From assembly GCA_963783905.1 (NCBI GenBank), contig CAWAPG010000007.1, forward strand, positions 5,281 through 69,280: a stretch of 64,000 nucleotides of DNA, in the 5' to 3' direction. The notes under the pieces are model-generated. The model was not told the DNA's origin and did no database searches. It saw only the letters and a program-made list of their open reading frames with translations. The position numbers and the translations under genes are program-made. Shown piece after piece: positions 34,903-58,288 of this stretch. The stretch is from an uncultured delta proteobacterium (GTDB taxonomy: Bacteria; Desulfobacterota; Desulfobulbia; Desulfobulbales; BM004). Numbering within the stretch: position 1 is the first letter of the stretch; the number at the start of each line of letters is the position of its first letter.

Positions 34903-37484
34903 TTACCAGCGCTCGGATCCGTGGCAGGCAATACTTGAACAGGTACCGTTGCTGTAACTGCCTACCCTGGTCGTACCGCCGCCGACTGTCGCAGCCGGAT
35001 CCAGTTCGAAACCCGAGGTTTCCAGATTGCTGAAATGACCATTGCCCAGGGTGTCGGTGTTGTGGCAGACCGTACAACTAAACCCTTCACCACCAACATG
35101 CTTGGAATGCCTGCCGGATGAATAGCTGTTGTACTGGGAAGAGCCTGAGCTATGGCAGGAAGTACACTGGGTATCGACTGCTATGATGCCGCTCCACCAG
35201 TCCGGGGTGGTCTGGCCGCCATGACATTTGACGCTGGAGCAGGTGCCGTCCAGATTGTCGGTGGCCGGGCCGCTCTTGGCATCAAAGGTATCCGGGAAAC
35301 CGAGATCAACCTGAGAATTATGCGCCGCCCCCAGATGACAAATCGTACAGTCTCCCCCTACTGAAGCCAGTGCAGTATGTACAGCATGGGCTCCGGCGGT
35401 ATCGGGATAGCTGGTGCCGGATGGTGGCTGGCCGTGACACAGGGTGCAGTCACTGTAGTCGGGACCGGTAGCGGAACCGGTATCCTGGGGCAGCACATCG
35501 GCAATGGCCTGCACCTCGCCCGGGGTCAAATTGCTGAGCATACCCATACCGCCGAGATTGCTGTCGATCGCCGTCTGGATTTCAGCCGCACTACGGCCCG
35601 GCTTGGCGGTTGTTTCCAGCGGTCCGTGGCAGCTGGAACAGTTGGTGCCGTACAGGGCATTACCGTCCGGCGGCAGGGTCGGATCGACCACCGGGGCCGT
35701 CGGCAGTGCATCGGCAATGGCCTGCACCTCGTCCGGGGTCAAGGCACTGAGCATGCCCATACCGCCGCGGTTGCTGTCAATCGCCGCCTGGATTTCAGCC
35801 GCACTACGGCCCGGCTTGGCGGTTGTGTCCAGCAGTCCGTGGCAGCTGGAACAGTTGGTGCCGTACAGGGCAATACCGTCCGGCGGCAGGGTCGGATCGA
35901 CCACCGGGGCCGTCGGCAGTGCATCGGCAATGGCCTGCACCTCGTCCGGGGTCAAGGCACTGAGCATGCCCATACCGCCGCGGTTGCTGTCGATCGCCGC
36001 CTGGATTTCAGCCGCACTACGGCCCGGCTTGGCGGTTGTGTCCAGCAGTCCGTGGCAGCTGGAACAGTTGGTGCCGTACAGGGCAATACCGTCCGGCGGC
36101 AGGGTCGGATCGACCACCGGGGCTGGCGGCAGTGCATCGGCAATGGCCTGCACCTCGCCAGGGGTCAAGGCACTGAGCATGCCCATACCGCCGCGGTTGC
36201 TGTCGATCGCCGCCTGGATTTCAGCCGCACTACGGCCCGGCTTGGCGGTTGTGTCCAGCAGTCCGTGGCAGCTGGAGCAGTTGGTGACATACAGGGCAAT
36301 ACCATCCGGCGGCAGGGTCGGATCGGGGTTGGAGTCGGGGTTGGAGTCGGGGTTGGGACAGGCATACCAGGAGCAGGTGTCTGGGCCGACGGCAATACTT
36401 CGGCTATGGCTGCAACCTCACCCGGGGTCAAAGTATTGAACATCCCCATGCCCCCGTAATTATTGTCAATAGCTGTCTGGATATCAGCGGCGCTGCTTCC
36501 CGGAATTTCGGTGGCGTCAAGGATGCCGTGACAGGCAGAACAGTTATCATGATAGAGGGTCATTCCATCATAGGAATCTGACAGCGGTACCCGCTGGCTG
36601 TAAGAATTTTTAACCATGGCAGCACCGTTTCCCTTAACATTCTGGACCGCCTGGTCGACCATGGCCTGATTGAAGGTGCCGTTGTTCTCCATGCCCTCCA
36701 GGGTGCTGATAACAATAGTTTGCTGCTGTAGTACTACGGCACGGATAAAATCCTGCAGAATAGGCGGACCGGTCATATCCGGATCGTCGGCCAAAGCCGC
36801 TCTAATAGCTGCAAACTCCTCGGGATTCAGCAGATTTTCCATGGCGTTGAGCATGGTGCTGAAAATCTGAAAGTGTTCTGAATCATTGAGTCCGTTCATG
36901 CCGGCCTGGTAGTCACCGGTTACTTCCATATAAGCATTGGCTGCCATGGAGGCCTGGAGAAGCCTAAGATCCTGATCGGTAACTTCATTTGTCTTGTCGG
37001 CCAGGCCGGCCATGGGATCGTCATACAGATCAGAAACAGCAATACTGGTGAAACCGGCATCATTAAATGCAGCGATAAGTTCTGTCGGTGTCATCCCGTT
37101 TGCCAGCAGGGTGGTCAGGGGAGAAACCACCACGGGGCCGACATCATCAGCTGCAACCATACGCCGCAGCATTCCCTGGTAAGGGGCGCCGCCGTGCAGT
37201 CCCGTATTGGGAACCAGTTCGACTATAGAGCCCGGCGTTAAAGGCTGATCAAAACCAAAATTTCCTGCTTCATCCGAAGGTGATGACTGCTGCAGAACAA
37301 TACCGGTGTCACTTTCTATTTCCTGAAAAATCCCCTCGACTATATATGGATCAACGGCTATACCCTGCGTGACGGTACCGCCTGTTGACAAATCCATTGT
37401 CGAGTCGCTGCCGCCGCCACAGGCGGCAAAAAGCACCAGGGGCAGAAGCAAGAATAACCATTTGCGCATAAATTTATGAACCAC
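34903..37484 (-). pseudogene. Multihaem c-type cytochrome lipoprotein (~860-905 aa if continuous), split into two ORFs by a single frame change in the Pro/Thr linker
   Basis: Lipoprotein signal MRKWLFLLLPLVLFAACGGG. A GTG at 37484 sits 6 nt after a GGAGG, and the next ATG is at 37469. Order: a ~330-aa non-haem domain, one diverged and four near-identical monohaem modules (NCS[AS]CHG...GGMGM), then a C-terminal domain with 4 CXXCH plus 2 CX4CH (CSSVKCH, CSSIACH). The downstream ORF (34903..36186) starts mid-repeat. Its frame stays open upstream to 36417 with no plausible start codon. Confidence 0.7.
35473..36324 (-). repeat. Tandem array of 4 x 213 bp (71 aa), each encoding one monohaem cytochrome c module
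   Basis: Antisense track ORFs recur at exactly 213-bp spacing (35526, 35739, 35952, 36165). Copies 35686-35898 and 35899-36111 differ at only a handful of positions by eye. Repeat unit: DPTLPPDGxALYGTNCSSCHGLLDTTAKPGRSAAEIQAAIDSNRGGMGMLSALTPxEVQAIADALPxAPVV. Confidence 0.9.
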
Positions 37485-37641
37485 AATAAACCTCCATGTT
37501 GAATTTATCCATAGCACTGCCTGAAAAATACATGTTGATAATAAAAAAAGTAATTGTAATTTCGTGCAGTTATACCGGTTGATCAATAACCGCAATACCA
37601 CTTTACATGCAGCTGATATCAATAGTAATGATTATTAGACA

Positions 37642-37656
37642 GCAATCCATGTGCCA
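37642..37656 (-). promoter_or_regulatory. Sigma-54 (-24/-12) promoter for the cytochrome lipoprotein gene
   Basis: The minus strand reads TGGCAC-ATGGA-TTGCT, a perfect match to TGGCAC-N5-TTGCW. It lies ~150 nt upstream of the lipoprotein start. Confidence 0.75.
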
Positions 37657-43754: not shown

Positions 43755-44885
43755 ATGACAAAACGTATTATTATCATTGTCCTGTTTTTGCTCCTTGTGG
43801 TCGGTGTTATTGCCGGCATCAAATATCTGCAGATACGCACCTTGATCGATCAGGGCGGCGGTGCTGCCCAACCCCCGGCAACGGTCACCAGCGCCGTGGC
43901 GGAAAACCAGAAATGGGAAAAGACCTTCAGGACAGTGGGTTCCCTTGAAGCGGTCCAGGGAGTCATGGTGGCACCAGAACTATCGGGTAAAGTAACAAAA
44001 ATAGCCTTTAACGCAGGGGACATGGTCGAAGCCGGCGACCTGCTGGTGCAGCTGGACATCAATACGGAGAAGGCTCAGCTGCGGGCGGCTGAGGCATCGG
44101 CGTCTCTGGCCCAGATGAATCTGCAGAGGACTTCCGAGGTCCTTGCCGATAACGGGGTCTCCCGCTCCGAATATGACAAGGCCGAAGCCTCCTACAAGGA
44201 AGCCGCGGCCCAGGTCGATACCATAAAGGCCGCCATTGCCAAAAAAACGATCAGGGCGCCGTTTGCCGGGCGCCTCGGCATCCGGCTGGTAAATCTGGGG
44301 CAGATCATCAGCGAAGGCGAATCCATTGTATCCCTGCAGAGCCTTGATCCTCTCTTCGTCAATTTTCAACTGCCGCAGCAGCAGCTGAACCGTGTCAAAG
44401 TAGACTATCCGGTGCGGCTGACCTCCAATGCCGTACCCGACGGAATAATGACCGGCACCATCACCACCATCAGTCCCGAGATTGACAGCGTTACCAGGAA
44501 CTTCCACCTCCAGGCCACGGTGGAGAACAGCCAGGAAGTTCTGCGCCCGGGCATGTTTGTCGAGGCCGCCGTTGTGCTGCCCGATGAGGAGGAAATCCTG
44601 GCCATACCTTCCACGGCCATTCTCTATGCGCCTTACAGCGACTCGGTTTTCGTCATCGAAGAAAGCAAGGCGAAAGAGGGGGAAAAAGCGGGCAAGGTTC
44701 TGCGCCAGCAGTTTGTCCGGCTCGGGGAGAGACGCGGTGATTATGTGGCGGTGACCTCCGGGCTTAAGGAAGGTGAAACCGTGGTCAGCACCGGGGTTTT
44801 TAAATTTCGCAACGGCCAGTCAGCCGTGATCGACAACAGCTTGAACCCTGAATTTAAACTGGAGCCACATCCCGTTAACAAATGA
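43755..44885 (+). CDS. RND efflux periplasmic adaptor (membrane fusion protein)
   Basis: N-terminal TM anchor, coiled-coil hairpin (QLRAAEASASLAQMNLQR...YKEAAAQVDTIKAAIAKKTIRAPFAGRLG). 4-nt overlap with the permease gene. Confidence 0.85.
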   Translation: MTKRIIIIVLFLLLVVGVIAGIKYLQIRTLIDQGGGAAQPPATVTSAVAENQKWEKTFRTVGSLEAVQGVMVAPELSGKVTKIAFNAGDMVEAGDLLVQLDINTEKAQLRAAEASASLAQMNLQRTSEVLADNGVSRSEYDKAEASYKEAAAQVDTIKAAIAKKTIRAPFAGRLGIRLVNLGQIISEGESIVSLQSLDPLFVNFQLPQQQLNRVKVDYPVRLTSNAVPDGIMTGTITTISPEIDSVTRNFHLQATVENSQEVLRPGMFVEAAVVLPDEEEILAIPSTAILYAPYSDSVFVIEESKAKEGEKAGKVLRQQFVRLGERRGDYVAVTSGLKEGETVVSTGVFKFRNGQSAVIDNSLNPEFKLEPHPVNK

Positions 44886-47800
44886 AATTTACCGACCTCT
44901 TCATCCGCCGGCCGGTCCTGGCCATGGTGGTCAGTCTGGTCATCATCATCGCCGGGCTGCAGGCCATCCGCTCCCTCAATGTCCGCCAGTATCCCCGCAG
45001 CGAGAATGCGACGGTGACGGTCACCACCGTCTATGTCGGCGCCAGCGCCGACCTGGTGCGCGGCTTTATCACCACCCCCCTGGAACGGGCCATCGCCGCG
45101 GCCGACGGCATCGACTACATCGAATCGCAGAGCACCCTGGGGCTCTCCACCATCAATGTCCGCCTGAAACTCAACTACGACGCGACCAAGGCCCTGGCCG
45201 AGATCAGCTCCAAGGTGGACCAGGTGCGCAACGATCTGCCGCCGGAGGCCGAGGTGCCGATCATCAACATCGAGTCGGCGGACAGCCGGTTCGCCTCGGC
45301 CTATCTCAGCTTCACCTCCGATATTCTCAAACAGAACGAGATCACCGATTATCTGGTCCGCGTCGTCCAGCCCCGGCTTTCCGCCCTGGCCGGCGTGCAG
45401 CGGGCCGATATCCTCGGGGCCCGCACCTTTGCCATGCGCATCTGGCTCAAACCCGAACGGATGGCCGCCTATCAACATCAGTCCGGTCGCAGGTGCGCCA
45501 GGCCCTGGCCGCCAACAACTTTCTTTCCGCCGTCGGCCAGACCAAGGGGGCGCTGATCCAGGTCAACCTCACCGCCAACACCGACCTGCGTTCGGTGCGG
45601 GAATTCAAGCAGCTGGTCATCCGGGAACAGGACGGCGCCATCGTCCGGCTCGGAGGATATCGCCGAGGTGGTCCTGGGGGCCGAGGATTATAACACCGAG
45701 GTCCATTTTTCCGGTCAGACCGCGGTATTCATGGGTATCTGGCCGCTGCCCAACGCCAACTCCCTGGATGTCATCAGCCGGGTGCGGACCGAGATGGCAT
45801 CCATCCAGAAGGAGCTGCCCACCGGCATGCAGGCCCGGGTCGCCTACGACGCCACCGATTATATCAAGAATGCCATCCACGAGGTGCTCAAGACCCTGGG
45901 CGACACCCTGCTCATCGTCGTGGTCATCATCTTTCTCTTTCTCGGCTCCTTCCGCTCGGTGTTCATCCCGGTGGTGGCCATTCCCATGTCGCTGATCGGC
46001 GCCGTCTTTCTGATGCAGGTCTTCGGCTTCACCATCAACCTGCTGACCCTGCTGGCCATCGTCCTTTCCGTCGGGCTGGTGGTGGATGACGCCATCGTCG
46101 TGGTGGAGAACGTCGAGCGGCATCTGCGGCTCGGCGAATCGCCGCTCGATGCAGCTCTGCTGGGCGCCCGCGAACTGGTCGGTCCGATCATCGCCATGAC
46201 CATCACCCTGGCCGCGGTCTATGCCCCCATCGGGCTGCAGGGCGGGCTCACCGGCTCGCTTTTCCGCGAATTCGCCTTTACCCTGGCCGGCGCCGTGACC
46301 ATTTCCGGGGTGGTGGCCCTGACCCTGTCGCCGATGATGTCCGCCAACCTGCTGAAGCCGGGGCCTGGCGGAACACGGCCTGGCCGGCAGAATCTCCCGG
46401 GATTTCGACCGGTTCAGGGCGAACCTACGGCCGCTGGCTGGATTTCACCCTCCGCACCCGGCCGGCGGTCTACCTGGTCTGGATCGTGCTCAGTCTTGCG
46501 GTCATCCCCATGTTCACCATGTCGGCCAAGGAACTTGCCCCCACCGAGGACCAGGGGGTCATTTTCGGCATCGTCGATGCCGCGGCCAATTCCACCCTCG
46601 ACCAGACCAGCATCTACGCCGCGGCGGCCAACCGCGCCTTTCTCAGCGTGCCGGAGACACAGTTCACCTTCCAGGTCACCTTCCCGTCCTCCGGTTTCGG
46701 CGGCATGGTGGTCAAACCCTGGGACGAGCGGCAGCGCACCATTTTCCAGATCCTGCCCGAGGTGCAGCAGCAAACTGCACGCCATTCCCGGCATCCGGAT
46801 GTTTCCGGTAACCCCGCCGGCCCTGCCGGGCGGCGGCCAGTTTCCGGTGGAATTCGTTCTTGCCTCCACCGCCGATGAGGACCAGATCCTGGACCTGGCC
46901 AAACAGATCCAGCAGAAGGCCATGGACAGCGGCATGTTCGCCTTCCCGCCGATCATCGACGTCAAGATCGACCAGCCCCAGGCCGAGATTGATATCGACC
47001 GGGACAAGGTGGCCGATCTCGGACCTCAACCTGGAGCAGGTCGGGGGCGATCTCGGTTCCATGCTGGGCGGCAATTACGTCAACCGCTTCAACATTGCCG
47101 GCCGCAGCTACAAGGTTATCCCCCAGATCCAGCGGGTTGACCGGCTCAACCCGGATCAGCTGAAGGATATCTATGTCACCGGCCCGGCCGGTCAGCTGGT
47201 GCCGCTCAGCACCGTGGCCACCCTGCACAGAACCACCGTGCCCCGCTCGCTGAACCGCTTCCAGCAGCTCAATGCCGTCAAGATCAGCGGCGTGGCGATC
47301 CGCCCCCTGGACGAGGCCCTGCGATTTCTGGAGGACGAGGCCGCCAAGATCCTGCCCAAGGGCTATGTCATCGACTATACCGGCGAATCGCGCCAGCTGC
47401 GCAGCGAAGGCAACACGTTCCTGCCGACCTTCGCCCTGGCGGTTGTCCTGATCTTTCTGGTGCTGGCCGCCCAGTTCAACAGCTTCCGCGACCCCTTCGT
47501 CATCCTGGCCGGCTCGGTGCCGCTGGCCATGTTCGGCGCCCTGATCTTCACCTTCCTGAAGATGCCGGACCCCAATATTCCCTTCTGGACCCACGGGCTG
47601 GACCACCACCCTCAACATCTACTCCCAGGTCGGGCTGGTGACCCTGGTCGGGCTGGTCTCGAAAAACGGCATCCTGATCGTCGAGTTCGCCAACAAGCTG
47701 CAGGAAAGGGGCAAATCCAAGCTCGAGGCGGTCCGGGAGGCGGCCATGAACACGGCTGCGACCGATCCTGATGACCAGCGCCGCCACCATTGCCGGCCAT

Positions 47801-47989
47801 TTTCCCCTGACCCTGGTCACCGGCGCCGGCGCCGCGGCCAGAAATTCCATCGGTCTGGTGCTGGTCGGGGGTATGGCCATCGGCACCTTCTTCACCCTGT
47901 TCGTGGTGCCGTCGATCTATATGCTGGTGGCCCGGGAGCATACCGCCGATTCCTCCCCGGAAGGATCAGCCGCTGCTCAGGATTCTTGA
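44882..47989 (+). pseudogene. RND (AcrB/MdtB-like) efflux permease broken into about 10 in-frame segments by frame changes
   Basis: Canonical N-terminus MKFTDLFIRRPVLAMVVSLVIIIAG and C-terminus PILMTSAATIAGHFPL...VVPSIYML. Colinear RND sequence can be followed only by hopping frames near 45470, 45490, 45651, 46368, 46428, 46775, 47022, 47596 and 47752. Confidence 0.8.
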
Positions 47990-48054
47990 GAAAAAGCGGT
48001 AATAACCACCCTCTCTCCAACACCGGAACATCAGAACATTGGCAGACCGCATTA

Positions 48055-49140
48055 CTACAGTTCAAGCTCCCTTTTTCCGGCCTCTGCATAGATCCGGATC
48101 GTTTTAGGAACAAATAAGTTGTTTTCAGGTTTGTTGGAGTCATAATCGACATTTATGCCGCCGATATAAAAAGATCGACTGCCGCTTTCCAGGAGAAGCG
48201 AATCAAATATATCGGCCCCCAGTCCAAGAAGCTTTTCAGCGGCGACGGCCATGGGATGGGCACCGGCAGCTATCTCGTCAAGATAGGGGGCAAGGGCCCT
48301 TTCCGTTTCCCTCATTTCAAAATCCTTGAAGTCCGGCGGTTTCCTGCCGTTGCCCCGTTCACCATGCCTTTTCAGGATCGCCGCCACCAGGCCGCAGGAA
48401 GAACTGGGCTGCCGCATGCCGTATCTGTCCGTCAGGCCCAGGGTATATTGCGAGTCGCAGCCGACATGGGTGGCGTGGAATACTACGGTCCAGGGGTTGC
48501 CGCGCAGTTCGGGAACGTGATGGGAGGGCGGCCCCAGGCTTTCAATACCCCGCCCCGCCGGGTATGCCCCGAATGCATTGAGGTCAAACCAGCCGCAGCT
48601 TCTGCCGCACCCCATAAGCAGGAACCCCAGTTGGTCCTGATTGTCGTCCCGGCAAAAACATTTTATTCCCAGGGCATTCTCGCCAAGGCGTATACCTTCA
48701 TTGTCAAGATGCTTCTTTAATATCGGGACAAACTCTCCGTATGAATAAAGAAAATCACGATTTTTCTTTACCGCAAAGGCCGACCTGATCTTTTCCATCA
48801 GACTGTTTATATCCGTCGGCTTGCCGAGAAAATCAACCGCACCCAGCCGGGCGGCTTCGTTTATGGTGGATTCGGTGCCGTAACCGCTGAGGACAATGGT
48901 CTGAATATCGGGATAGTTTTTTTTGACCTGCCGCAAGACCTCCATGCCGTCCATCCCCGGCATCTTGAGGTCAAGAATCATGACATCCGGTGCATTTTTC
49001 TCTATAAGCTCCAGGGCCTTTTTGCCGCCAAACGCAGTCTCGGCGGCGACACCCCGGGAGTCAAGCCGTTCGGATAATGCCCGGGCAAAGGTTTCTTCAT
49101 CATCAACCAGCAGCACCTTAATTTTTCTGTTGTCCGCCAT
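48055..49140 (-). CDS. Response regulator: canonical receiver domain fused to a ~240-aa Cys/His-rich domain of unknown function
   Basis: Receiver: VLLVDDE...ILDLKMPGMDG...VLSGYG...FLGKP. C-terminal part: IKCFCRDD, GCGRSCGWF, FHATHVGCDS, SSSCGLVAAILKRH. Start set at MADNRKIK (49140). Confidence 0.75.
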   Translation of the reverse strand: MADNRKIKVLLVDDEETFARALSERLDSRGVAAETAFGGKKALELIEKNAPDVMILDLKMPGMDGMEVLRQVKKNYPDIQTIVLSGYGTESTINEAARLGAVDFLGKPTDINSLMEKIRSAFAVKKNRDFLYSYGEFVPILKKHLDNEGIRLGENALGIKCFCRDDNQDQLGFLLMGCGRSCGWFDLNAFGAYPAGRGIESLGPPSHHVPELRGNPWTVVFHATHVGCDSQYTLGLTDRYGMRQPSSSCGLVAAILKRHGERGNGRKPPDFKDFEMRETERALAPYLDEIAAGAHPMAVAAEKLLGLGADIFDSLLLESGSRSFYIGGINVDYDSNKPENNLFVPKTIRIYAEAGKRELEL

Positions 49141-49202
49141 GCCGATCTCCCGCATCCTGCGACACCTGTTTCATGCCGGTGCAATTACTCTGTCATCATC
49201 CT

Positions 49203-50693
49203 TCAGGACACCGGAATATATACCTGCATCCCCATTATAGGCCAGATAAACTGTACAGCCAGCCAGGTGACCACCATGAGCAGAATGCTGGCCGGAATGC
49301 CGTAGAAAAAGAATTCACCCGGGGTGAACTGTTTTGAGGTATAGGCAATGGCATTGGGCGCCGCACCCACCAGGAGCAGAAAGGGCATACCGGCCACAAT
49401 CAGGGCTGAAAATACGATTACCTCGCCGGCCACCCCGAGATACGGCGCTATGACCAGGGCCACCGGCAGGGAGATGGCGATGGCCGCCACGTTCATGATG
49501 AAATTCGTCATAATCATAACGAAAAATGCCATACCGAGGATGAAGACGATGGCCGGAGCGTTCTTGAACATGGTGAGCCAGTTGATGGCCATCCACTTGG
49601 CCGCTCCGGTTTCCCACAGACAGAAACCGATGGACATGGCGCCGGCAAAAAGCAGAATAATATTCCATGGCATTTCTTCCAGGTCGTCAATATCGAGAAT
49701 GTTGACCGCAAAGAACAGAATGGTTGAACAGAGAAGAATCCCTGTTTTGTGAAGGTTTGTCATGGCGGGAATAAACGATTTGCCGGAAATGACGATGATT
49801 GTCGCGATAACTATGATTATTGCCAGAATCTCCTTGCCCGACCAGGCTCCAAGTTCCCGGTACATTCTTTTGGCCTTTTCCTTGAGCCCGGGGATGGACA
49901 CCTTTTCAGGTCTGCAGGTAAACATGAAAAATCCCCAGAGAAGAAAAGTCATGCCCCAGCCGATGGGCGCCATATAGTAAGAAAGCTCGAAAAAGCTTAT
50001 ATCAGTGCCGGTAATATCCTTGTAAAATCCGAGGGCCACGGCGCCGCGGGCCGCACCGAGCAGGGTTATGATGCTGCCGGCGCCTGCAACATAGGCCATG
50101 CCGATAAAAAGTCCCTTGCCGAATTTTGTCGGTCCTGTCTGGTCCGTATACATTGAATAAATGGCCATCAGCAGTGGAAACATGGTGGCCGCAACCGCCG
50201 TATGGGCCATTATATGGGTCAGGGCGGTCGTAAGCACGAAACTGCCCAGGTAAATCATGCTCGTTTTTTCACCAACAATGGAGAGCATTTTATAGGCGAT
50301 TCTTTTCGTCAGCCCGGTCTTGGTGAAAACCATGCCGATCACAATGGAGCCGAAAATAAAAAGAACCGATGGATCCATGAAATCCGTGAAGGCAACCTTG
50401 GCAGGCCGGATGAAAAATAAGGCCTGCAGGGTACCGATTGTCAAACTGGTTACCCCGATGGGCACAACCTCAAATACCCACCATATTGCGGCGATAAGAA
50501 AAACGGCAATGGCCCCTTTTCCTTCTTTGGTGAGAATAAACTGCTCCCCAAGGGGATCGACCGCAGCAGGCCACATGGGTGAATAATAGACCCCCAGAAA
50601 CGTGATCACGCCTGCCAGTAAAAAGAATATTCTTTTCCAATTAATGGGCCTTCTTTCCGTTGCCAACCTTACTTCCGGATTTGCATTAGACAT
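49203..50693 (-). CDS. SLC13/DASS-family anion permease (ArsB/NhaD superfamily)
   Basis: 496 aa polytopic protein with the two-fold DASS layout. Confidence 0.7.
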   Translation of the reverse strand: MSNANPEVRLATERRPINWKRIFFLLAGVITFLGVYYSPMWPAAVDPLGEQFILTKEGKGAIAVFLIAAIWWVFEVVPIGVTSLTIGTLQALFFIRPAKVAFTDFMDPSVLFIFGSIVIGMVFTKTGLTKRIAYKMLSIVGEKTSMIYLGSFVLTTALTHIMAHTAVAATMFPLLMAIYSMYTDQTGPTKFGKGLFIGMAYVAGAGSIITLLGAARGAVALGFYKDITGTDISFFELSYYMAPIGWGMTFLLWGFFMFTCRPEKVSIPGLKEKAKRMYRELGAWSGKEILAIIIVIATIIVISGKSFIPAMTNLHKTGILLCSTILFFAVNILDIDDLEEMPWNIILLFAGAMSIGFCLWETGAAKWMAINWLTMFKNAPAIVFILGMAFFVMIMTNFIMNVAAIAISLPVALVIAPYLGVAGEVIVFSALIVAGMPFLLLVGAAPNAIAYTSKQFTPGEFFFYGIPASILLMVVTWLAVQFIWPIMGMQVYIPVS

Positions 50694-50738: not shown

Positions 50739-51263
50739 TTACAGATTGCACTTTTCACAGACGGCCTTGAAAATTTCCTTCAGGCGGATAACCCCGATAA
50801 CGCGATCCTCATCCGTAACAGGCAAAACCGTATCTTTTGTATTTATCATAATGAGCAGTGCCATTAGGACAGGATCGCTTCCTTTGAGGCTATGCTTTAT
50901 CGGTGACATGAAGTCACGAATGAGTATGTTCGTCCTCTTTTTGCACTCCATGAAAAATGATTCTTCCCAGATATACGTCAGATCAGGGAATTCAGATTTT
51001 TTCCCGGCAAATTTTTTAACCATGGATCCATCCTGCAATCGTGGGTTCAGGCTCTGCAGTATATTCTGCAGGGTGGCATGTCCTATGAGCTGATTCCGGT
51101 CATTTAAAACCAGAAGTTCTGCATATGTGATACGGTCATCTTCAACAGAGGTATAGGATGTAATCACCGCAACAGCTTCGTGGAGGGTATTGTTTTCCTT
51201 GAGATGCGGATACTTGTCGAGTGGTATAACCAGGTCTCTTACAACCGGATTGTCGGAACCCAT
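50739..51263 (-). CDS. CBS-pair domain protein
   Basis: 174 aa, two CBS-like repeats (LHEAVAVIT...LLVLNDRNQLIGHATLQNIL and VLMALLIMINTKDTVLPVTDEDRVIGVIRLKEIF). Confidence 0.7.
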   Translation of the reverse strand: MGSDNPVVRDLVIPLDKYPHLKENNTLHEAVAVITSYTSVEDDRITYAELLVLNDRNQLIGHATLQNILQSLNPRLQDGSMVKKFAGKKSEFPDLTYIWEESFFMECKKRTNILIRDFMSPIKHSLKGSDPVLMALLIMINTKDTVLPVTDEDRVIGVIRLKEIFKAVCEKCNL

Positions 51264-51432: not shown

Positions 51433-51873
51433 TTACCATGTTTTACTTTTAATGATTTTCCTGACTTCTTCCTGCCGCCCTTTTTCCACCACGAGCATTC
51501 TTTTATGTTTGGCCTCGCCGATCTTTTCGAGCAATTCGTTCAGATCGACCGGTTTTTCCAGAAAATCCTCCGCCCCCAGCTTCATTGCCTCGATGCCGCT
51601 TTTTACTGTTGCATGACCGGTCAACATGATGATCTCCAGGTCCGGACGTTTTTCCTTGATTCGTCTCAGGGTTTCAATGCCATCGATACCGGGCATGGCA
51701 AGATCAACGACTATCGCGTCAAAATTCTGGTCCTCGACCTGCTTTAACGCGTCTTCTCCGCTTGTCACGGCATCGACCTTGAGCCCTCTGGTTTTCAACC
51801 GCTGTGAAAGCGCATCCAGAAACTGTTCCTCGTCATCGACCAGCAGTACATTTGCTTCTAATTTTTCCGTCAT
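51433..51873 (-). CDS. Single-domain response regulator (CheY-like)
   Basis: VLLVDDE, VVDLAMPGIDG, MLTGH, LEKP: all canonical receiver residues. Confidence 0.85.
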   Translation of the reverse strand: MTEKLEANVLLVDDEEQFLDALSQRLKTRGLKVDAVTSGEDALKQVEDQNFDAIVVDLAMPGIDGIETLRRIKEKRPDLEIIMLTGHATVKSGIEAMKLGAEDFLEKPVDLNELLEKIGEAKHKRMLVVEKGRQEEVRKIIKSKTW

Positions 51874-51896: not shown

Positions 51897-52349
51897 TTAT
51901 TTTTTTCTTTCCTTGAGATATTCGCGCGCACTCCCATACTCACCTGCTTCCGCAAAGGCTGCCGCAGCCATGGTATCCTCAATTTTATCCCGGTATGCCG
52001 CCTTGATGCGATTCACCAGGACCTCGATGTCGACCGGCTTTTTCAGGTAGTCAAAAACCCCGATACGCCTTGATTCCTCTTCATCCCTATCCGTTCCGTG
52101 CCCCGTTAAGATGATAACCCGGATTTTGGGGAATTTCCTGGTTACCTGCCGGAGGACCTCCATGCCGTCAATTCCAGGCATTTTCAAATCAAGAACCATC
52201 ACATCCGGCTCCTTGTCATCCACAAAGCTCAGTGCCTGTTCGCCATTATAGACGGTCTCGTTCTCAAGATCACGCATTTGCAAACGTTCGGATAATGTTT
52301 CGACAAATTTCTGCTCGTCATCAACTAGAAGTACTTTCATTTCTTTCAT
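51897..52349 (-). CDS. Single-domain response regulator with conserved C-terminal AAFAEAGEY tail
   Basis: Start set at MKEMKVLLVDDE (ATG 52349, AGGAGAA RBS). LDLKMPGIDG, ILTGH, LKKP. Tail: DTMAAAAFAEAGEYGSAREYLKERKK. Confidence 0.85.
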   Translation of the reverse strand: MKEMKVLLVDDEQKFVETLSERLQMRDLENETVYNGEQALSFVDDKEPDVMVLDLKMPGIDGMEVLRQVTRKFPKIRVIILTGHGTDRDEEESRRIGVFDYLKKPVDIEVLVNRIKAAYRDKIEDTMAAAAFAEAGEYGSAREYLKERKK

Positions 52350-52380
52350 GGCATTCTCCTTTTCGTCCCGGCATATATTC

Positions 52381-52893
52381 TCAGCCATTGTTTCTTTTAT
52401 TGCTGCCTTCCCGGTGAATTTTTTGCGCCGTCTCATATTCTCCTGCCTCGGCAAAGGCCGCTGCCACCATTGTATCTTCAAAAACATTCAGCAGTGCCGG
52501 TTTGCGGCAAGCTCGCACGCGGGCTTTTCTCCTTTGTAAAGCGCTTTTTATTTTTTTTCGCAGCGAGTCGATTTCAAAAGGAACGGTTATGTCATCATAT
52601 GCCCCCTGCCGCATGCCCTCCATGGCAAGAGAAATATTTGCAGGATCACTTAAGAGAATCACCTCGGTTTCCGGCTGATTTAACTTCAGACGGGCAAGAA
52701 CCTGCATGGCATCATGTCCTTGGTGCCTTATATCCAAAAGAGCCAGGTCAACTTCATGTTTTGTGCACATCTCCAATGCCTCATTCTTACCGACCGCGGT
52801 TATGACTGAAGCCTTCAGACGCTTGAGGGTCTCGGATAAATTCTGCAGGAAAAAAGAATCTTCCGCAACAAGTAGAACTGTCGAATGCATCAC
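52381..52893 (-). CDS. Atypical receiver-domain protein (conserved Lys replaced) with the same C-terminal AAFAEAGEY tail
   Basis: LLVAEDS, LLDIRHQGHD, ILLSD, and ITVPF where K-P is expected. Tail: DTMVAAAFAEAGEYETAQKI. Confidence 0.75.
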   Translation of the reverse strand: MMHSTVLLVAEDSFFLQNLSETLKRLKASVITAVGKNEALEMCTKHEVDLALLDIRHQGHDAMQVLARLKLNQPETEVILLSDPANISLAMEGMRQGAYDDITVPFEIDSLRKKIKSALQRRKARVRACRKPALLNVFEDTMVAAAFAEAGEYETAQKIHREGSNKRNNG

Positions 52894-52964
52894 ATCACCT
52901 TAACAGTTAATTTCTTTACCACGCCTGCACCCCATGGTTTGCCTGAAAGACACCGCAGAAGAAC

Positions 52965-53255
52965 TTAAATCAAAACGGTGCCATATATCACCTGGACACC
53001 TTTCAGGCCGAGACTTTCACACATAGCGGCATTAAAATCATTTCCGCTGCTCCGCGCCGGTTCCATAAGTTCGACCGCCTCTTTATGAAGACCTGATTCT
53101 GCAAAGGCAGCCGCCATGAAAACTCTATTCAACCAGCTTAACTCACGGGACAACTTGATTTCAGGAAGCATTTCTCTGGCAGTGTCCCATTCACCGGCCT
53201 CGGCATAAGTTGCCGCCATCATATTCTTCAGGAATGCTTGGAATATATTTTTCAT
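52965..53255 (-). CDS. Small (96 aa) protein carrying two copies of the AxxAEAGE tail motif. First gene behind the sigma-54 promoter.
   Basis: AGGAGG RBS immediately upstream of the ATG at 53255. MMAATYAEAGEWDTAREML and FMAAAFAESGLHKEAVELM. The track ORF start (53333) falls inside the -24/-12 promoter and is rejected. Confidence 0.65.
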   Translation of the reverse strand: MKNIFQAFLKNMMAATYAEAGEWDTAREMLPEIKLSRELSWLNRVFMAAAFAESGLHKEAVELMEPARSSGNDFNAAMCESLGLKGVQVIYGTVLI

Positions 53256-53327
53256 TGTGGACCTCCTTGGTTTAGCACCGGTTACACTGCTTTCAGGTTC
53301 GTTTTGATATTTATATAGCAAGGCCTG

Positions 53328-53342
53328 TGCCATTTTTATATT
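53328..53342 (-). promoter_or_regulatory. Sigma-54 (-24/-12) promoter
   Basis: The minus strand reads TGGCAC-AGGCC-TTGCT, a perfect consensus, ~73 nt upstream of the ATG at 53255. Confidence 0.8.
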
Positions 53343-53615: not shown

Positions 53616-54296
53616 TTATGCAATTTCAATGGAGGATACTAAGATGGCAAACACCTGGTTTCCCCCGGGCAGGATTCTTTGAGAATGTTCAGCCCTCAGC
53701 TTCTGCAGAATGTCGGGAAGAACCTCTCGCCATTCATTGTCCACCGGCGATTTCTTCATTTCCCCCACAAAATTAACTACAACCTCAACTGCTGCCCCCT
53801 GCCGGGAGATCTCAACCAGGATTCGTCCTTCCTTATCCAGTGAAGCCAAAGCCGGCCAGACGATGCAAAAAAGCGCAAATTGCAGCAGGGCGGGATCGTT
53901 GAAAATTACCGGTGCATCATCACCAAATACAGCGTCCAGATTCACCTGTTTCTGCCAGGCAAATCGGCGCAGAAGGTATATTGCCTCCTGCAAAACTTCA
54001 GTTACGCTGAATGAAGAAAGGGGTTGGTCCATACGGTGGGCGAAGCCACTGAGAAAACGGCACATTTCCGCTGCCTGAGCAATACGCTGATTGACTCCGG
54101 CAATATTTTCCTGCAGTCGCTCCCTCTTGATCGGCTTCTCCGGTTCTTCCAGCAAAATCAGGTCTTCAATCAGGCCGTTTAATTCTTTGATAATCGCCAG
54201 ATGGTTTTTAAACTCATGGGAAAGCCCCGCCATCAATTTACCGACAAAGGCTAACTGCATCTCTCTGAGATGGCCCTGTTGCTGCGATTGCATCAC
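53616..54296 (-). CDS. Soluble HisKA-containing protein with a degenerate or absent ATP-binding domain
   Basis: H-box LMAGLSHEFKNHLAII. In the C-terminal ~110 aa I cannot find N, G1 (DxGxG) or G2 (GxGxG) boxes. No TM segments. 4-nt overlap with the upstream receiver gene. Confidence 0.65.
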   Translation of the reverse strand: MMQSQQQGHLREMQLAFVGKLMAGLSHEFKNHLAIIKELNGLIEDLILLEEPEKPIKRERLQENIAGVNQRIAQAAEMCRFLSGFAHRMDQPLSSFSVTEVLQEAIYLLRRFAWQKQVNLDAVFGDDAPVIFNDPALLQFALFCIVWPALASLDKEGRILVEISRQGAAVEVVVNFVGEMKKSPVDNEWREVLPDILQKLRAEHSQRILPGGNQVFAILVSSIEIA

Positions 54297-54697
54297 TCTT
54301 CTCCTCTCTTTTGGGAAGCCTGCCGTTTTGCCATGGCCTGATTGATCTTGGCGGTAAGCTCTATAATATCCGCCGGCTTCATCATGCAGTCAAAAGCACC
54401 ATGCTTTTCACTGCCGATCCCGGATAACGGCACCCCTGCTCCATGCCCGGTTAACATGATTACCTCAATATCAGGATTATATTTTTTTATTTCCCTGAGT
54501 GTTTCCATGCCATCCATGCGCGGCATTTTTAAATCGAGCAGAACAACGTCAGGAATGTTTTTGGCATGGATACGGGCGAGTGCATCCTCGGTACAGTAGA
54601 CAGCCGCCGTTTCAAAGCCTCTGATGCTCAACCGTTCCGCCAGAGTTGAGGCAAAATCCTTCTCATCGTCAACTATCAGAACCTTTATTTTCGCCAT
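54293..54697 (-). CDS. Single-domain response regulator
   Basis: VLIVDDE, LLDLKMPRMDG, MLTGH, MMKP. Confidence 0.85.
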   Translation of the reverse strand: MAKIKVLIVDDEKDFASTLAERLSIRGFETAAVYCTEDALARIHAKNIPDVVLLDLKMPRMDGMETLREIKKYNPDIEVIMLTGHGAGVPLSGIGSEKHGAFDCMMKPADIIELTAKINQAMAKRQASQKRGEE

Positions 54698-56438
54698 CTC
54701 GATCCCTCCGCCTCATTTTCATTATTTTAATCGGCAGGCTTACGGTAAAAGTAGTGCCTTCCCCCGCGCTGCTGCGCACGGAGATTTGTCCACCGAGCTT
54801 TTTAACCAGGCCGTAAGTAATGAACAGCCCGAGCCCGGTGCCTCTTTTCTCGCCGCTGTCTTTTGTGGTAAAAAACGGTTCAAAAATATGGCTTCTGATT
54901 TCCCGGGGTATGCCCTTGCCAGTATCAACTATATCAACTTCCATTGTATCTTGATCCTGCAACTTGGTCGTAACGGTAATCACCCCGTCTTTTTCAATGG
55001 CCTCAATCGCGTTATTGAGAAGATTAAGAAATATCTGCTGCAGCTGGCCACGGTCACTTTCTATGACAGGCAGGGACTCACCGAAGTTCAAATCAATGTG
55101 AATACCCCGATAAAGGGCTTCCTTGTCGAGAAAACTCAACACTTCACGCATGAGGCTGTTGATATCTATGGGTTCCAGCGTAACATCCATGCGGCGGGCA
55201 AAACCCAGGAGCCGGTGGGTGATGACCTTGCAGCGTTCCACCGCCTCGGATGCACCATTAATTTCCGAAGATATTTTATCCTTGTATTTAAAATCTTCAG
55301 AAATTTCGAGCAGATCCATGATCAACCCGGTTTTTGTACTGATAATCGCCAGAGGGTTGTTAATTTCATGGGCCACTCCGGCGGCGAGACGCCCTATGGA
55401 CGCCAACTTGCTTGTATGTTCAATTTCTACCAGCATGGATTCCCGCTTTTCGTCTGCTTCACGAATTCGGCCGACAATATGTCTGGTGATCTGCAGAATA
55501 ACAAGTATTGCGAATACGGTGCTGATCGAAACAATAAAAAGCAGTTGGGCCTTGAAAAAAGACCACTCTCGCCCATAGAGATAGCCCTGCTTTAATAAAA
55601 CAAGCGCCCACGGGGTCCCTTCGAGATGCGAGACGGCCTTTAATACATCATCGTTCCTTAAACCTGATTCTTCAGAAACCGTGACGCCGATACGGTTTCC
55701 GGGAAGATCAGCCGGATATGGGCTCAGCGGAGGGCCGTAATACCGTGATGAAGACTGCAGCAGATGCTCTCCATTCCTGCTGACCAGAAAGATATCGGAC
55801 AAGGCGGCCGTGTCGGTTTTTTCGATATATTTATCAAGGGTCGCAGCATCGATACTGGTCCGGAACACCCAGTTCCGTCCTGTATCAGGGGTGATGCCGC
55901 TGACCGCAATACAAAAATGAGGCACCTTGCGATACCCCATCTCGACCTTGCCGATGAATGTTTTGTTCGCTGTAACGAGCCTAAAACATTCGCGGTTACT
56001 GTAGTCTTTGCCTTTAAGCTCGTAAGGGCCCGCGTATGCTCTCTGAATTCCTTTATCATCGATAATACCCAGATCAACCACGCCGGGATAATTTGACTTG
56101 AGCCGGTGATACAGCTTATTCAGGTTGTCCTGGTCGGTCAACTCTTCAAAAGTTTGACCGCTGGCTGTATAAACAAGTACCGTCTGGAGTTCCGACAAAA
56201 AAGTTTCAATGGTTCTTTTCGCACTTTCTGCGTTCCAGCGCAAATTAGCCAGTACCAAGGCACGATACTCGTAGTAGCTCAACCAGGTGATCATAAGCAG
56301 GGGGATCAAGAAGGTTGCAGTCATTACGAGAAACAGGGTCCGGCGCAAACGTCTGTATCGCCGTGGTGATTTTGCAATTTTATAATTTTCGGCAACATCA
56401 CGGAAAACCCTTTTTAGCCATCCCGAATCTTTTTTCAT
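54669..56438 (-). CDS. Membrane sensor histidine kinase with a periplasmic Cache-like domain
   Basis: Two TM segments bracket a ~250-aa extracytoplasmic domain. H-box AAGVAHEINNPL. N box LLNNAIEA. G1 DTGKGI. G2 GTGLGL. Confidence 0.85.
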   Translation of the reverse strand: MKKDSGWLKRVFRDVAENYKIAKSPRRYRRLRRTLFLVMTATFLIPLLMITWLSYYEYRALVLANLRWNAESAKRTIETFLSELQTVLVYTASGQTFEELTDQDNLNKLYHRLKSNYPGVVDLGIIDDKGIQRAYAGPYELKGKDYSNRECFRLVTANKTFIGKVEMGYRKVPHFCIAVSGITPDTGRNWVFRTSIDAATLDKYIEKTDTAALSDIFLVSRNGEHLLQSSSRYYGPPLSPYPADLPGNRIGVTVSEESGLRNDDVLKAVSHLEGTPWALVLLKQGYLYGREWSFFKAQLLFIVSISTVFAILVILQITRHIVGRIREADEKRESMLVEIEHTSKLASIGRLAAGVAHEINNPLAIISTKTGLIMDLLEISEDFKYKDKISSEINGASEAVERCKVITHRLLGFARRMDVTLEPIDINSLMREVLSFLDKEALYRGIHIDLNFGESLPVIESDRGQLQQIFLNLLNNAIEAIEKDGVITVTTKLQDQDTMEVDIVDTGKGIPREIRSHIFEPFFTTKDSGEKRGTGLGLFITYGLVKKLGGQISVRSSAGEGTTFTVSLPIKIMKMRRRDRDGENKGSDS

Positions 56439-56788
56439 GACTGTCCCCCGGGTTTACTGGCGCCGGGCAGAATTATTCCCGGCTTAAGAGTATTTGCAGA
56501 AACAAAATCCAAAGCCCGCTGATAAGGACCGATGATCCCGTCAACAACCTTTATTTTTTTCCATGTAAGATACTGGTGATAAGTCTCTTCGATACCACCG
56601 CAAATGACGAGGGAAACGTTTTCCTTGATAGCCAGGCTGCAAATATCTTCGCCAGAAATATTCGGGAGCAGGACAACTCTCGGCGCACCCATATTATTTT
56701 CGTCGTCCATCTCAATTACGAGAATTTCCGCAGTCTGATCGAATCGGGGAGCAACTTCGTTTTTTTGTATTGCTATTAATATCTTCAT
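56435..56788 (-). CDS. NifB/NifX-family (dinitrogenase FeMo-cofactor-binding domain) small protein
   Basis: MKILIAIQKNEVAPRFDQTAEILVIE...VICGGI pattern typical of the family. 4-nt overlap with the kinase gene. Confidence 0.6.
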   Translation of the reverse strand: MKILIAIQKNEVAPRFDQTAEILVIEMDDENNMGAPRVVLLPNISGEDICSLAIKENVSLVICGGIEETYHQYLTWKKIKVVDGIIGPYQRALDFVSANTLKPGIILPGASKPGGQS

Positions 56789-56845: not shown

Positions 56846-58288
56846 TCAACCCAGGCCGTGGCGTTTTATTTTTCTCCATAACTTGCTGCGTGACCAGCCA
56901 AGGAGTTCGGCCGCTCTGGAGCGGTTTCCTCCTGTTTTAGTCAAGGCATTCAGTATCATGCCTTTTTCCATCTCCCCCCACCCTCCGTGTGAGGGTACGG
57001 TAAAGGTAGTTGTCAGGGCGGGAGAATCCGACGAGGTCTCCGCATTTCCCAGGGACGCTGACCCGACACGGGATGAAGACGAAGATGAGATCCGTGTTTC
57101 TGTAAGCATGGTTTTGGGCAAATGCTCCGGCCCAACGGTTTCTTCCGAACAAACATTAACCGCATACTCGACAATATTTCTCAATTCTCTGATATTTCCC
57201 GGATAGCGGTATGCGGCTAAAACCTCAAGACATGCCGGGCTGAACCCCTTGGTTGTTTTGTTCAGGTTGCCTCTGATCTCTCTGAAATAATGATCGAGAA
57301 GGAGCCGGAAATCATCTTCCCGTTCCCGCAGCGGCGGCAGATGGAGACGGAGGACATTGAGCCGGTAATACAGGTCTTCGCGGAAATTGCCCAGCTTGAC
57401 AAGTTCTCCCAAATCCCGATGGGTGGCTGCTATAATGCGCACATCAACGCTGACTTTTTTTGATCCTCCGACAGGAAAGAACTCTTTATCATCCAGAACG
57501 GTGAGTATTTTCACCTGGAGCGGCAATGACAAATCCCCGATTTCCGTGAGGAACAGCGTGCCCCCATGGGCCAGGCGAAACATGCCGGGCTTATCCTTAT
57601 CAGCTCCGGTAAAGGCCCCCCGGACATGGCCGAACAGCTCCGATTCCAGGAGGGATTCCGGTAGAGCGCCGCAGTTGACTTTAATAAAGGGATAGCGTGC
57701 TCTTTTTGATGCTTTATGGATGGCCTCGGCAACCAGATCCTTGCCGGTGCCGGTCTCGCCGGTTATCAGCACCGAGGCATCCGTTCTTGCCGTTATGGGA
57801 AGCAGTTCAAAAATTTCCTGCATTTTCCGGCTCTGCCCTATAATCTTCTCCGGCCCGGAAAAACCGTGGATTTTATCATCAAGATCTTTAAGCAGGGAAA
57901 TATCTTCCAGGATGACCATAACCCCAACCTTTTCGCCGGTCGTGAGCTTTAAAGGGGATATGGTGAAGCGGATAGGCACTTTTTTGCGGCCCTGATTGAT
58001 AATATCCCCTTCAAGGGTCATTGTCTCGTCAGATTCTAGGGCCTTGCCCACGGGGTCACCCTTGTTTATCAGGTTGCTGCGGATGATATTTTCGCCATAA
58101 ACACCGGCAACCGCCTCGCGGTTGTAACCGGTCAAAGCCTCGAGAAAATGGTTGATTGTAATGATCCTACGGGCCTGATCCATAAAAAGCACCCCCATTG
58201 TCATGGAGTCCAGGAAAGCCATAAAATCGAGTTTACTCATCAGAGAAGATTCGGGCCGGAAGGACGTCCCCCTTTTTTTCTTCGACAT
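56846..58288 (-). CDS. Sigma-54-dependent transcriptional activator (PAS sensor, AAA+, Fis-type HTH). No receiver domain.
   Basis: PAS-like N-terminus. Walker A GETGTGKD. GAFTGA loop. ESELFGH. C-terminal HTH NRSRAAELLGWSRSKLWRKIKRHGL. Confidence 0.9.
   Translation of the reverse strand: MSKKKRGTSFRPESSLMSKLDFMAFLDSMTMGVLFMDQARRIITINHFLEALTGYNREAVAGVYGENIIRSNLINKGDPVGKALESDETMTLEGDIINQGRKKVPIRFTISPLKLTTGEKVGVMVILEDISLLKDLDDKIHGFSGPEKIIGQSRKMQEIFELLPITARTDASVLITGETGTGKDLVAEAIHKASKRARYPFIKVNCGALPESLLESELFGHVRGAFTGADKDKPGMFRLAHGGTLFLTEIGDLSLPLQVKILTVLDDKEFFPVGGSKKVSVDVRIIAATHRDLGELVKLGNFREDLYYRLNVLRLHLPPLREREDDFRLLLDHYFREIRGNLNKTTKGFSPACLEVLAAYRYPGNIRELRNIVEYAVNVCSEETVGPEHLPKTMLTETRISSSSSSRVGSASLGNAETSSDSPALTTTFTVPSHGGWGEMEKGMILNALTKTGGNRSRAAELLGWSRSKLWRKIKRHGLG

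Follow-up and report, generated by a model that had tools for sequence, protein, structure and literature searches.

A portable TPR-like module in a small protein and two receiver tails of a Desulfobulbales signalling locus

Tetratricopeptide repeats (TPRs) normally occur in arrays of three or more, and their usual role is protein–protein interaction. Here, we describe a TPR-like module found in a protein of 96 amino acids (aa) and in the C-terminal tails of two receivers encoded beside it, in a 64-kb window (the whole stretch of DNA analysed, 64,000 nucleotides) of contig CAWAPG010000007.1 from an uncultured Desulfobulbales bacterium (assembly GCA_963783905.1). The module shares with known TPRs (CL0020; TPR_4, TPR_12, and TPR_14; CTPR) the 34-residue helix-turn-helix unit and its tandem spacing, together with small residues at positions 8 and 20, an aromatic residue at position 11, and the turn Gly. 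It differs from them in that one unit may stand alone at the end of a chain, or two to four may occur, in some cases separated by long linkers; its core, FAEAGE, is nearly fixed, and its gene neighbourhoods are restricted. Among the outputs of two-component systems, single-domain receivers are understood least, as no effector domain is evident in them, and a conserved 30-residue module on two of them offers a concrete and testable handle on their binding partners.

The C-terminal domain of FimV/HubP (TIGR03504) is likewise a short TPR-like helical hairpin, which closes polar landmark proteins and reads A-[YF]-x-E-x-G-[DE]-x-x-x-A-R. Its carrier proteins and taxa differ from those described here, and the 96-aa protein, with 13.7 bits (E = 0.049) against a cut-off of 30.65, is not a member. 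In Rap and NprR (RRNPP), TPR surfaces act on single-domain receivers of a phosphorelay, such as Spo0F; in those systems, a large TPR protein with many repeats binds to the body of the receiver, whereas here the TPR unit belongs to the receiver itself and the putative partner has 96 aa. NprR was among the Foldseek neighbours of the small protein, at a non-significant score. The 96-aa protein and a set of tiny proteins (48–80 aa) described below also recall microProteins such as Id/HLH and LITTLE ZIPPER, in that they are largely one interaction module, which is also present on larger signalling proteins encoded next door. The microProtein concept comes from eukaryotic transcription factors, where larger partners are titrated, and the likeness here is one of analogy only.

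As for the locus, sulfate reducers are reported to have a conserved cluster in which a DASS sulfate transporter is accompanied by Cache kinases, several two-component proteins, and CBS proteins (PMC11887813). The cluster in the window matches it in its DASS, Cache kinase, two-component, and CBS genes; the section of that paper on the DASS cluster mentions neither receiver tails nor a small protein.

Four motif copies in three adjacent genes

The pattern A[AT][FY]AE[AS]G occurred four times in the window, always on the minus strand and across three adjacent genes (Table 1), as a preliminary description of this DNA had noticed; regular expression, profile hidden Markov model (HMM), and shuffled sequences agreed on this point. 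The 96-aa protein carries MMAATYAEAGEWDTAREML and FMAAAFAESGLHKEAVELM. In the canonical receiver, DTMAAAAFAEAGEYGSAREYL is followed by KERKK and the stop, and in the atypical receiver, DTMVAAAFAEAGEYETAQKI is followed by 11 further residues to the chain end. The early statement that both receivers end in the motif was thus right about its position near the terminus, but too strict for the atypical receiver. The back-translated pattern GCNRCNTWYGCNGARKCNGG matched the window four times, whereas 100 dinucleotide-preserving shuffles gave 0.00 matches on average, which excludes chance. The motif HMM scored the four copies at 52–58 bits and found nothing else in the window at 12 bits or above, and a six-frame scan of the 64 kb with the regular expression returned no copy beyond the four. 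The three other receivers of the locus, one of which is fused to an LCIB domain, lacked the motif, as had also been noticed. The weak match IYAEAGKRELEL at the C-terminus of this fusion (48076–48090) was considered as a fifth copy and rejected, since the ortholog in locus L001 reads IYENANKTEFNF.

Third-codon identity at identical residues was 7/9 in one copy pair and about 40–50% in the other five. Third-codon positions are therefore largely randomised between copies, indicating old conservation at the protein level, and recent duplication or gene conversion was rejected on the same ground. The module signature reads M-x-A-x-x-[FY]-A-E-A-G-E-[FYWH]-x-T-A-R.

Ala at positions 8 and 20, Phe or Tyr at position 11, and Gly at position 15 were invariant or nearly so. 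Positions 8, 15, and 20 are classic helix-packing positions of TPRs, which also take large hydrophobic residues at positions 7, 11, and 24. In addition, hhalign aligned the motif to positions 9–24 of the consensus TPR, and sub-threshold matches to Pfam TPR_4, TPR_14, and TPR_12 coincided exactly with the motif; no Pfam TPR model reached its gathering score, the best being TPR_4 with 19.9 bits against a cut-off of 27. The spacing between copies was exactly 34 aa in 28 of the 29 members of the small-protein family, 34 + 34 aa in the three-copy protein P0270 (manual count), and mostly 33–36 aa in other two-copy proteins. This strict period indicates that units stack within one chain like ordinary TPRs. 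The Usp-like multi-copy proteins described below do not keep the 34-residue period, their copies being set on long linkers. Each receiver tail has one repeat and the 96-aa protein two, short of an array of at least three stacked repeats. A Foldseek search with the AlphaFold2 (AF2) model of the small protein (mean confidence, pLDDT, 63.8) gave a best E of 0.59 and a TM score of about 0.3, and the top ranks, none of them significant, were nearly all TPR proteins. By its sequence logic, the module is a TPR, a single unit of which serves as a portable tag, but it falls short of every curated TPR model and of the FimV C-terminal model.

The remark in the preliminary description that no named module of this kind was known also stood, as no entry covering the motif was found in Pfam, NCBIfam, the Protein Data Bank (PDB), or the literature. 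In NCBIfam, nothing exceeded its cut-off for the small protein, and the only matches were TIGR03504 and PPR. A sequence search of the PDB with the motif profile returned only a 10-residue chance match, and literature searches on the motif (full text), on TauE, Usp, and sigma-54, and on receiver–Lon fusions found no account of the module.

Homologs of the small protein formed 29 clusters, mostly of 96–99 aa, all of them annotated as hypothetical and without a Pfam family; those with a named source came from Desulfobulbaceae or Thermodesulfobacteriota. The motif cores are its best-conserved stretches. Residues A14, A18, E19, A20, G21, E22, W23, and A26 of unit 1 are invariant across the family, as are A48, A52, E53, and A60 of unit 2, and AF2 places helices at residues 2–19 and 23–29 in the first unit and at 41–53 and 57–64 in the second. 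The protein had been thought to consist of little else than the motif, which underrated its C-terminal part. There, AF2 models at low confidence a helix at residues 74–81, which could cap the TPR pair, and strands at 88–90 and 93–95, which belong to a conserved hairpin (LGLxGVxxxYG) with G83 and G86 invariant and L82, L84, and G92 nearly so. A hairpin of the form LGLxG[VA]xxxY/F-G closes small TPR proteins with one, two, or three repeats (the window protein; L020, 7801–7998; P0270, P0271, and P0273), which suggests a separate binding or beta-augmentation element.

The canonical receiver scored 97.4 bits with PF00072, has the DD, D, T, and K residues, and is modelled by AF2 with the (βα)5 fold. 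The atypical receiver matches the same fold (56.7 bits) but differs at catalytic residues: VAED replaces VDDE, changing the first pocket Asp to Ala, and TVPF replaces KKPV, changing the conserved Lys to Val, and both replacements recur in the orthologs. The module makes up the final 29–34 residues of the two receivers. In the AF2 model of the canonical receiver, α5 (residues 107–133) runs straight into helix A of the motif, and a turn leads from there to a short helix B (140–145) at low confidence. This continuation and the TPR register fit the original idea of a single TPR-like helix-turn-helix unit appended after the receiver fold. The succession of the small protein and two tailed receivers is syntenic in the window and in loci L001, L003, L016, L032, L034, L128, and L130, and L020 retains the same arrangement with a one-copy small protein. 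The tails are retained in the orthologs of L001, L003, L128, and L130, although the orthologous small proteins are only about 50% identical. Furthermore, the regular expression found the tail in 108 of the 120 listed matches to the second receiver, most of which were at least 73% identical.

Carriers and gene neighbourhoods

A profile of the motif matched 2031 clusters at E ≤ 10. In an exhaustive search of 1.84 billion representatives, 1143 clusters (50% identity) reached E ≤ 1e-3, mainly from Nitrospirota and Thermodesulfobacteriota, and 137 reached E ≤ 1e-10. The module is thus far more widespread than had been guessed at first. The 1143 clusters represent a large unannotated family, whose sampled members have no Pfam family and which includes hundreds of proteins of about 55 residues that annotation pipelines call 'hypothetical' or miss. 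A pattern scan of one genome per species found at least 120 loci. Among the matches listed, 42 loci contained canonical motifs, almost all of them from Nitrospirota or Thermodesulfobacteriota ('Deltaproteobacteria'), and the remaining listed loci were ordinary TPR arrays or junk frames. The 42 loci are the sample behind the architecture and neighbourhood counts below.

Usp-like proteins, with the motif N-terminal or inserted, accounted for 33 of the 84 motif genes in this sample, followed by tiny proteins of up to 80 aa (29), receivers with C-terminal tails (11), small proteins of 81–135 aa (9), and other architectures (2). The motif is consequently not specific to receiver tails, a point on which the preliminary description needed correcting, and most carriers are tiny or Usp-like. 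Pfam confirmed the receiver identity of all three carriers sampled. For the domain attached in Usp-like carriers, one of the seven sampled passed the PF00582 cut-off and one more matched weakly. A profile of the 33 Usp-like domains matched the tandem Usp proteins of the loci with E from 2e-17 to 2e-5 for nearly all, including two proteins with a Pfam Usp label, which relates the domain to Usp. Multi-copy matches fell into two groups, namely the two- and three-copy small proteins and Usp-like proteins with one to four N-terminal copies on linkers.

The best single-copy matches were tiny proteins of 48–70 aa, with the pattern MKxLxxKFExxMxAxTFAEAGE[HFY]ETAR and a basic tail. Phe occupied residue 17 in 74 of 102, the place also taken by the aromatic residue of unit 1 in the window protein. 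The tiny proteins (P0035–P0114) have a second short, conserved element at the C-terminus after a basic, probably disordered linker, reading ..DRP..RP..RKELRAD or ..KR.DKTMRASSPPRQ, and [LM][RN]A occurs within the last 12 residues in 61 of 102. It may serve as an additional binding site or as a signal for degradation. The idea that the tiny proteins are leader peptides or upstream open reading frames (ORFs) of transporter operons was rejected: that sequence also occurs fused in frame with receiver and Usp-like domains, and its conservation at the protein level extends across phyla.

Motif genes clustered with each other and with a restricted set of neighbours. Two or three of them lay within an 8-kb block in 29 of the 42 listed loci and in none of 76 control loci. 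Genes for TauE (26/42 vs. 0/76), receivers (29/42 vs. 2/76), histidine kinases (25/42 vs. 5/76), sigma-54 AAA proteins (21/42 vs. 1/76), Usp (18/42 vs. 0/76), a membrane protein of 83 aa (16/42 vs. 0/76), receiver–Lon proteins (REC-Lon; 8/42 vs. 0/76), and DASS (5/42 vs. 0/76) were all enriched, although part of this enrichment is taxonomic, since the control loci come from other phyla. Neighbours were labelled with local phmmer seeds, save where Pfam is stated. The typical order was tiny motif protein, motif-carrying Usp-like protein, 83-aa membrane protein, TauE, and tandem Usp, and a kinase and a sigma-54 regulator were often encoded divergently.

These data bear on the simplest alternative, namely that the motif is a chance match in Ala-rich, low-complexity sequence or a commonplace TPR fragment scattered without special meaning. 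Roughly half of the genomic matches to the strict pattern were indeed ordinary TPR arrays or junk frames, such as LAAAYAEAGEFDKAV in large TPR proteins of Planctomycetes and Acidobacteria, and the Pfam TPR models match the motif weakly. Nevertheless, the absence of expected matches in shuffled windows, the 137 representatives at E ≤ 1e-10, the conserved placement at chain ends, and the strong neighbourhood enrichment, above all for TauE, sigma-54 AAA, and Usp, effectively refute this reading and leave it extremely improbable. The module is real, conserved, TPR-like, and mobile between architectures, and its carrier genes cluster. Because it marks TauE/DASS, sigma-54, and receiver–Lon loci in sulfate reducers and Nitrospirota, it provides a lead into the regulation of sulfate and sulfite transport in organisms that drive the anaerobic sulfur cycle.

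Two of the neighbours have features of their own. The conserved membrane protein of about 83 aa (e.g. L004, 7796–8047) almost always stands between the motif-carrying Usp-like gene and TauE, and in L040, L065, L075, and L114 a motif copy precedes it or is fused to it. In REC-Lon, of about 670 aa, the receiver is inserted between the N-terminal helical segment of LonA and the AAA module. It was found in L004 (4725–6651, split into two genes), L005 (7222–9237), and L006 (7388–9388), as well as in L025, L037, L076, L082, L121, L123, and L127, and very often adjoins tiny motif genes. Our literature search for REC-Lon proteases found nothing.

Possible partners of the module

The reading that we prefer, with about even confidence, is that motif-bearing proteins dock onto each other, the tails stacking on the TPR units of the small protein or on one another. 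This idea, raised already in the preliminary description, fits the strong co-occurrence of several motif genes per locus. Units of one chain stack on each other, as their strict period indicates, and a single TPR hairpin would hardly be stable by itself, so that the receiver tails might be expected to stack on other TPR units and to form a short array from separate chains. The tails lie at the extreme C-termini and unit 1 of the small protein begins at residue 7, which makes an end-to-end continuation geometrically plausible. Docking would tether or sequester the two receivers, and it could be gated by phosphorylation, since the tail continues α5 of the α4-β5-α5 face; we infer both the binding between modules and this control. 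If true, a TPR array assembled from separate chains would be of interest to protein designers and to those who study bacterial microproteins. Gene order suggests a phosphorelay that would run from the dCache kinase through a receiver and a kinase-like phosphotransferase to the terminal receivers. This locus probably regulates the DASS sulfate transporter encoded beside it.

Several observations weigh against docking. Tailed receivers always number two, whether the small protein has one, two, or three TPR copies. At TPR position 17, the aromatic residues of co-located copies agreed in 18 of 61 pairs against 15 expected, a non-significant excess (p = 0.21). The long linkers between copies in many Usp-like proteins would suit independent binding units equally well, and model confidence is low, with a pLDDT of about 50 for the receiver tail and 63.8 for the small protein. 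Moreover, tailed receivers in L092 and L046 are unaccompanied by a small motif protein in the available sequence. A stoichiometry of two motifs to two tails was tried and rejected, as the three-copy proteins P0270 and P0271 and the one-copy protein of L020 all stand beside two tailed receivers.

The tailed receivers of L092 and L046 would be accommodated if the tail served the receiver alone, either in self-association through a phosphorylation-driven homodimeric four-helix bundle or as an autoinhibitory fold-back on α4-β5-α5, with no cross-talk to the small protein. The tail prolongs α5, a helix generally used in receiver dimerisation, and double-receiver proteins with a single tail exist (P0258 and P0262). 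We consider such a role unlikely, however, because the small protein and the two tailed receivers are tightly syntenic even though the small protein itself is only about 50% identical, and because the module makes up most of each free-standing tiny protein as well, and these contain nothing that it could dimerise or inhibit.

The clustering of motif genes could also have another cause. The main rival to docking, though a doubtful one, is that the module is a handle for a common partner without the motif, and its carriers would then cluster because of that partner and not because they bind each other. REC-Lon is the best candidate, the module serving as a degron or adaptor-binding tag; a kinase or a sigma-54 activator are others. 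In all three contexts obtained from the protein look-up, a REC-AAA-Lon_C gene directly adjoined the tiny motif gene. REC-Lon lay within 700 bp of 9 of 23 evaluable tiny motif genes, in varying orientations, compared with 2 of 34 for large motif proteins, and it was confined to motif loci in the comparison with controls given above. In L006 and L007, the only genes of the motif module are those of an 84-aa two-motif protein and REC-Lon. The second C-terminal element of the tiny proteins (..RKELRAD or ..TMRASSPP), placed after a disordered basic linker, would likewise suit an adaptor or a substrate. Conversely, tblastn detected no Lon homolog in the 64-kb window, and no Lon was seen in the fetched flanks of the tailed-receiver loci L001 and L003 (±8 kb), L016, L020, L032, L034, and L128. 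The strict 34-residue spacing within one chain, which indicates TPR-like stacking of units, also speaks against a simple handle.

Docking between modules can be pictured more broadly as a split-TPR code, a proposal that we regard as improbable. In it, single hairpins on receivers, Usp-like proteins, and microproteins would build an array that is remodelled by phosphorylation, through α5, and by the receiver-gated Lon, which would remove tiny competitors. If true, phosphorelays of Nitrospirota and Thermodesulfobacteriota would be coupled, through a hitherto unrecognised post-translational layer, to TauE/DASS anion transport, sulfate uptake included.

The surrounding locus

The features of the locus are collected in Table 1. 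The syntenic order runs from the sigma-54 activator through the NifX-like protein, the dCache kinase, a receiver, the kinase-like protein, the small TPR protein, the atypical tailed receiver, and the second tailed receiver to the motif-less receiver, CBS protein, and DASS symporter; the receiver–LCIB fusion follows in some loci only.

Table 1. Features of the locus, with positions in the 64-kb window
Feature	Position	Strand	Evidence or remark
Sigma-54 activator with PAS, no receiver	56846–58288	-	Pfam of syntenic orthologs and local phmmer label
NifX-like protein	56435–56788	-	Pfam
dCache histidine kinase	54669–56438	-	Pfam
Receiver (134 aa), no motif	54293–54697	-	Pfam
Kinase-like protein, 226 aa, candidate phosphotransferase	53616–54296	-	H-box kept
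Sigma-54 type promoter TGGCACAGGCCTTGCT	53317–53332	-	Exact consensus (TGGCAC-N5-TTGCT), 62 nt upstream of small-gene ATG
Gene for 96-aa two-TPR protein	52965–53255	-	ORF; ATG at 53255, AAGGAGG Shine-Dalgarno 7 nt upstream
TPR-like unit 1 (residues 7–40; Y17 = TPR position 11)	53136–53237	-	HMM 57.6 bits
TPR-like unit 2 (residues 41–74; F51 = TPR position 11)	53034–53135	-	Exactly 34 residues after unit 1
C-terminal part of small protein: helix 74–81 and conserved ESLGLKGVxxxYGTV hairpin	52968–53033	-	
Atypical receiver gene, 169 aa from ATG at 52890	52381–52890	-	Pfam Response_reg E = 3.3e-15
TPR-like tail of atypical receiver (VFEDTMVAAAFAEAGEYETAQKIHREGSNKRNNG)	52384–52485	-	HMM 54.4 bits; exactly 34 residues by count
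Canonical single-domain receiver gene, 150 aa	51897–52349	-	Pfam Response_reg E = 7e-28
TPR-like tail of canonical receiver (IEDTMAAAAFAEAGEYGSAREYLKERKK)	51900–51986	-	HMM 53.6 bits
Third receiver, no motif	51433–51873	-	Pfam/NCBIfam
CBS protein	50739–51263	-	Pfam/NCBIfam
DASS anion symporter	49203–50693	-	Pfam/NCBIfam
Receiver–LCIB_C_CA fusion	48055–49155	-	Pfam/NCBIfam

A site equivalent to the sigma-54 type promoter lies 64–78 nt upstream of the small gene in L001, L003, L128, L032, and L016. A second exact sigma-54 consensus was found elsewhere in the window, at 37641–37656 (minus strand), just upstream of a 485-aa ORF (36165–37622).

The kinase-like protein of 226 aa gave only a sub-threshold match to HisKA, and its NCBIfam matches to kinase DHp/CA models were below the curated cut-offs. 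No HATPase_c domain and no recognisable N or G boxes were found in it, and the H-box SHEFKNH is retained. The gene is syntenic in L001, L003, and L128 and lies between the receiver and the terminal receivers. The protein is a candidate phosphotransferase of the ChpT/Spo0B kind in a multi-step relay.

The third receiver has a conserved C-terminal extension of its own, ..VVEKxRQEEVxKIxKSKxW, which ends in Trp and is nearly identical in L001, L003, and L128. The fusion of a receiver to LCIB_C_CA, a beta-carbonic-anhydrase-like domain, near DASS is an unusual response-regulator output and is kept in L001. In L128 (4596–6188), a variant of the locus with a three-TPR protein, DASS is followed by a 392-aa protein without a Pfam match and then by a DsrC-family gene, which ties the cluster to dissimilatory sulfur metabolism.

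Beyond the cluster, the plus strand at about 44000–48000 of the window has a G+C content of 0.60–0.64, compared with 0.46–0.52 in the adjoining sequence. An apparent RND-type multidrug-efflux gene, recognised by eye, is spread there over overlapping ORFs in different frames (45668–47140, 46860–47771, and 47638–48117), which could reflect frameshifts, a pseudogene, an assembly problem, or acquired DNA.

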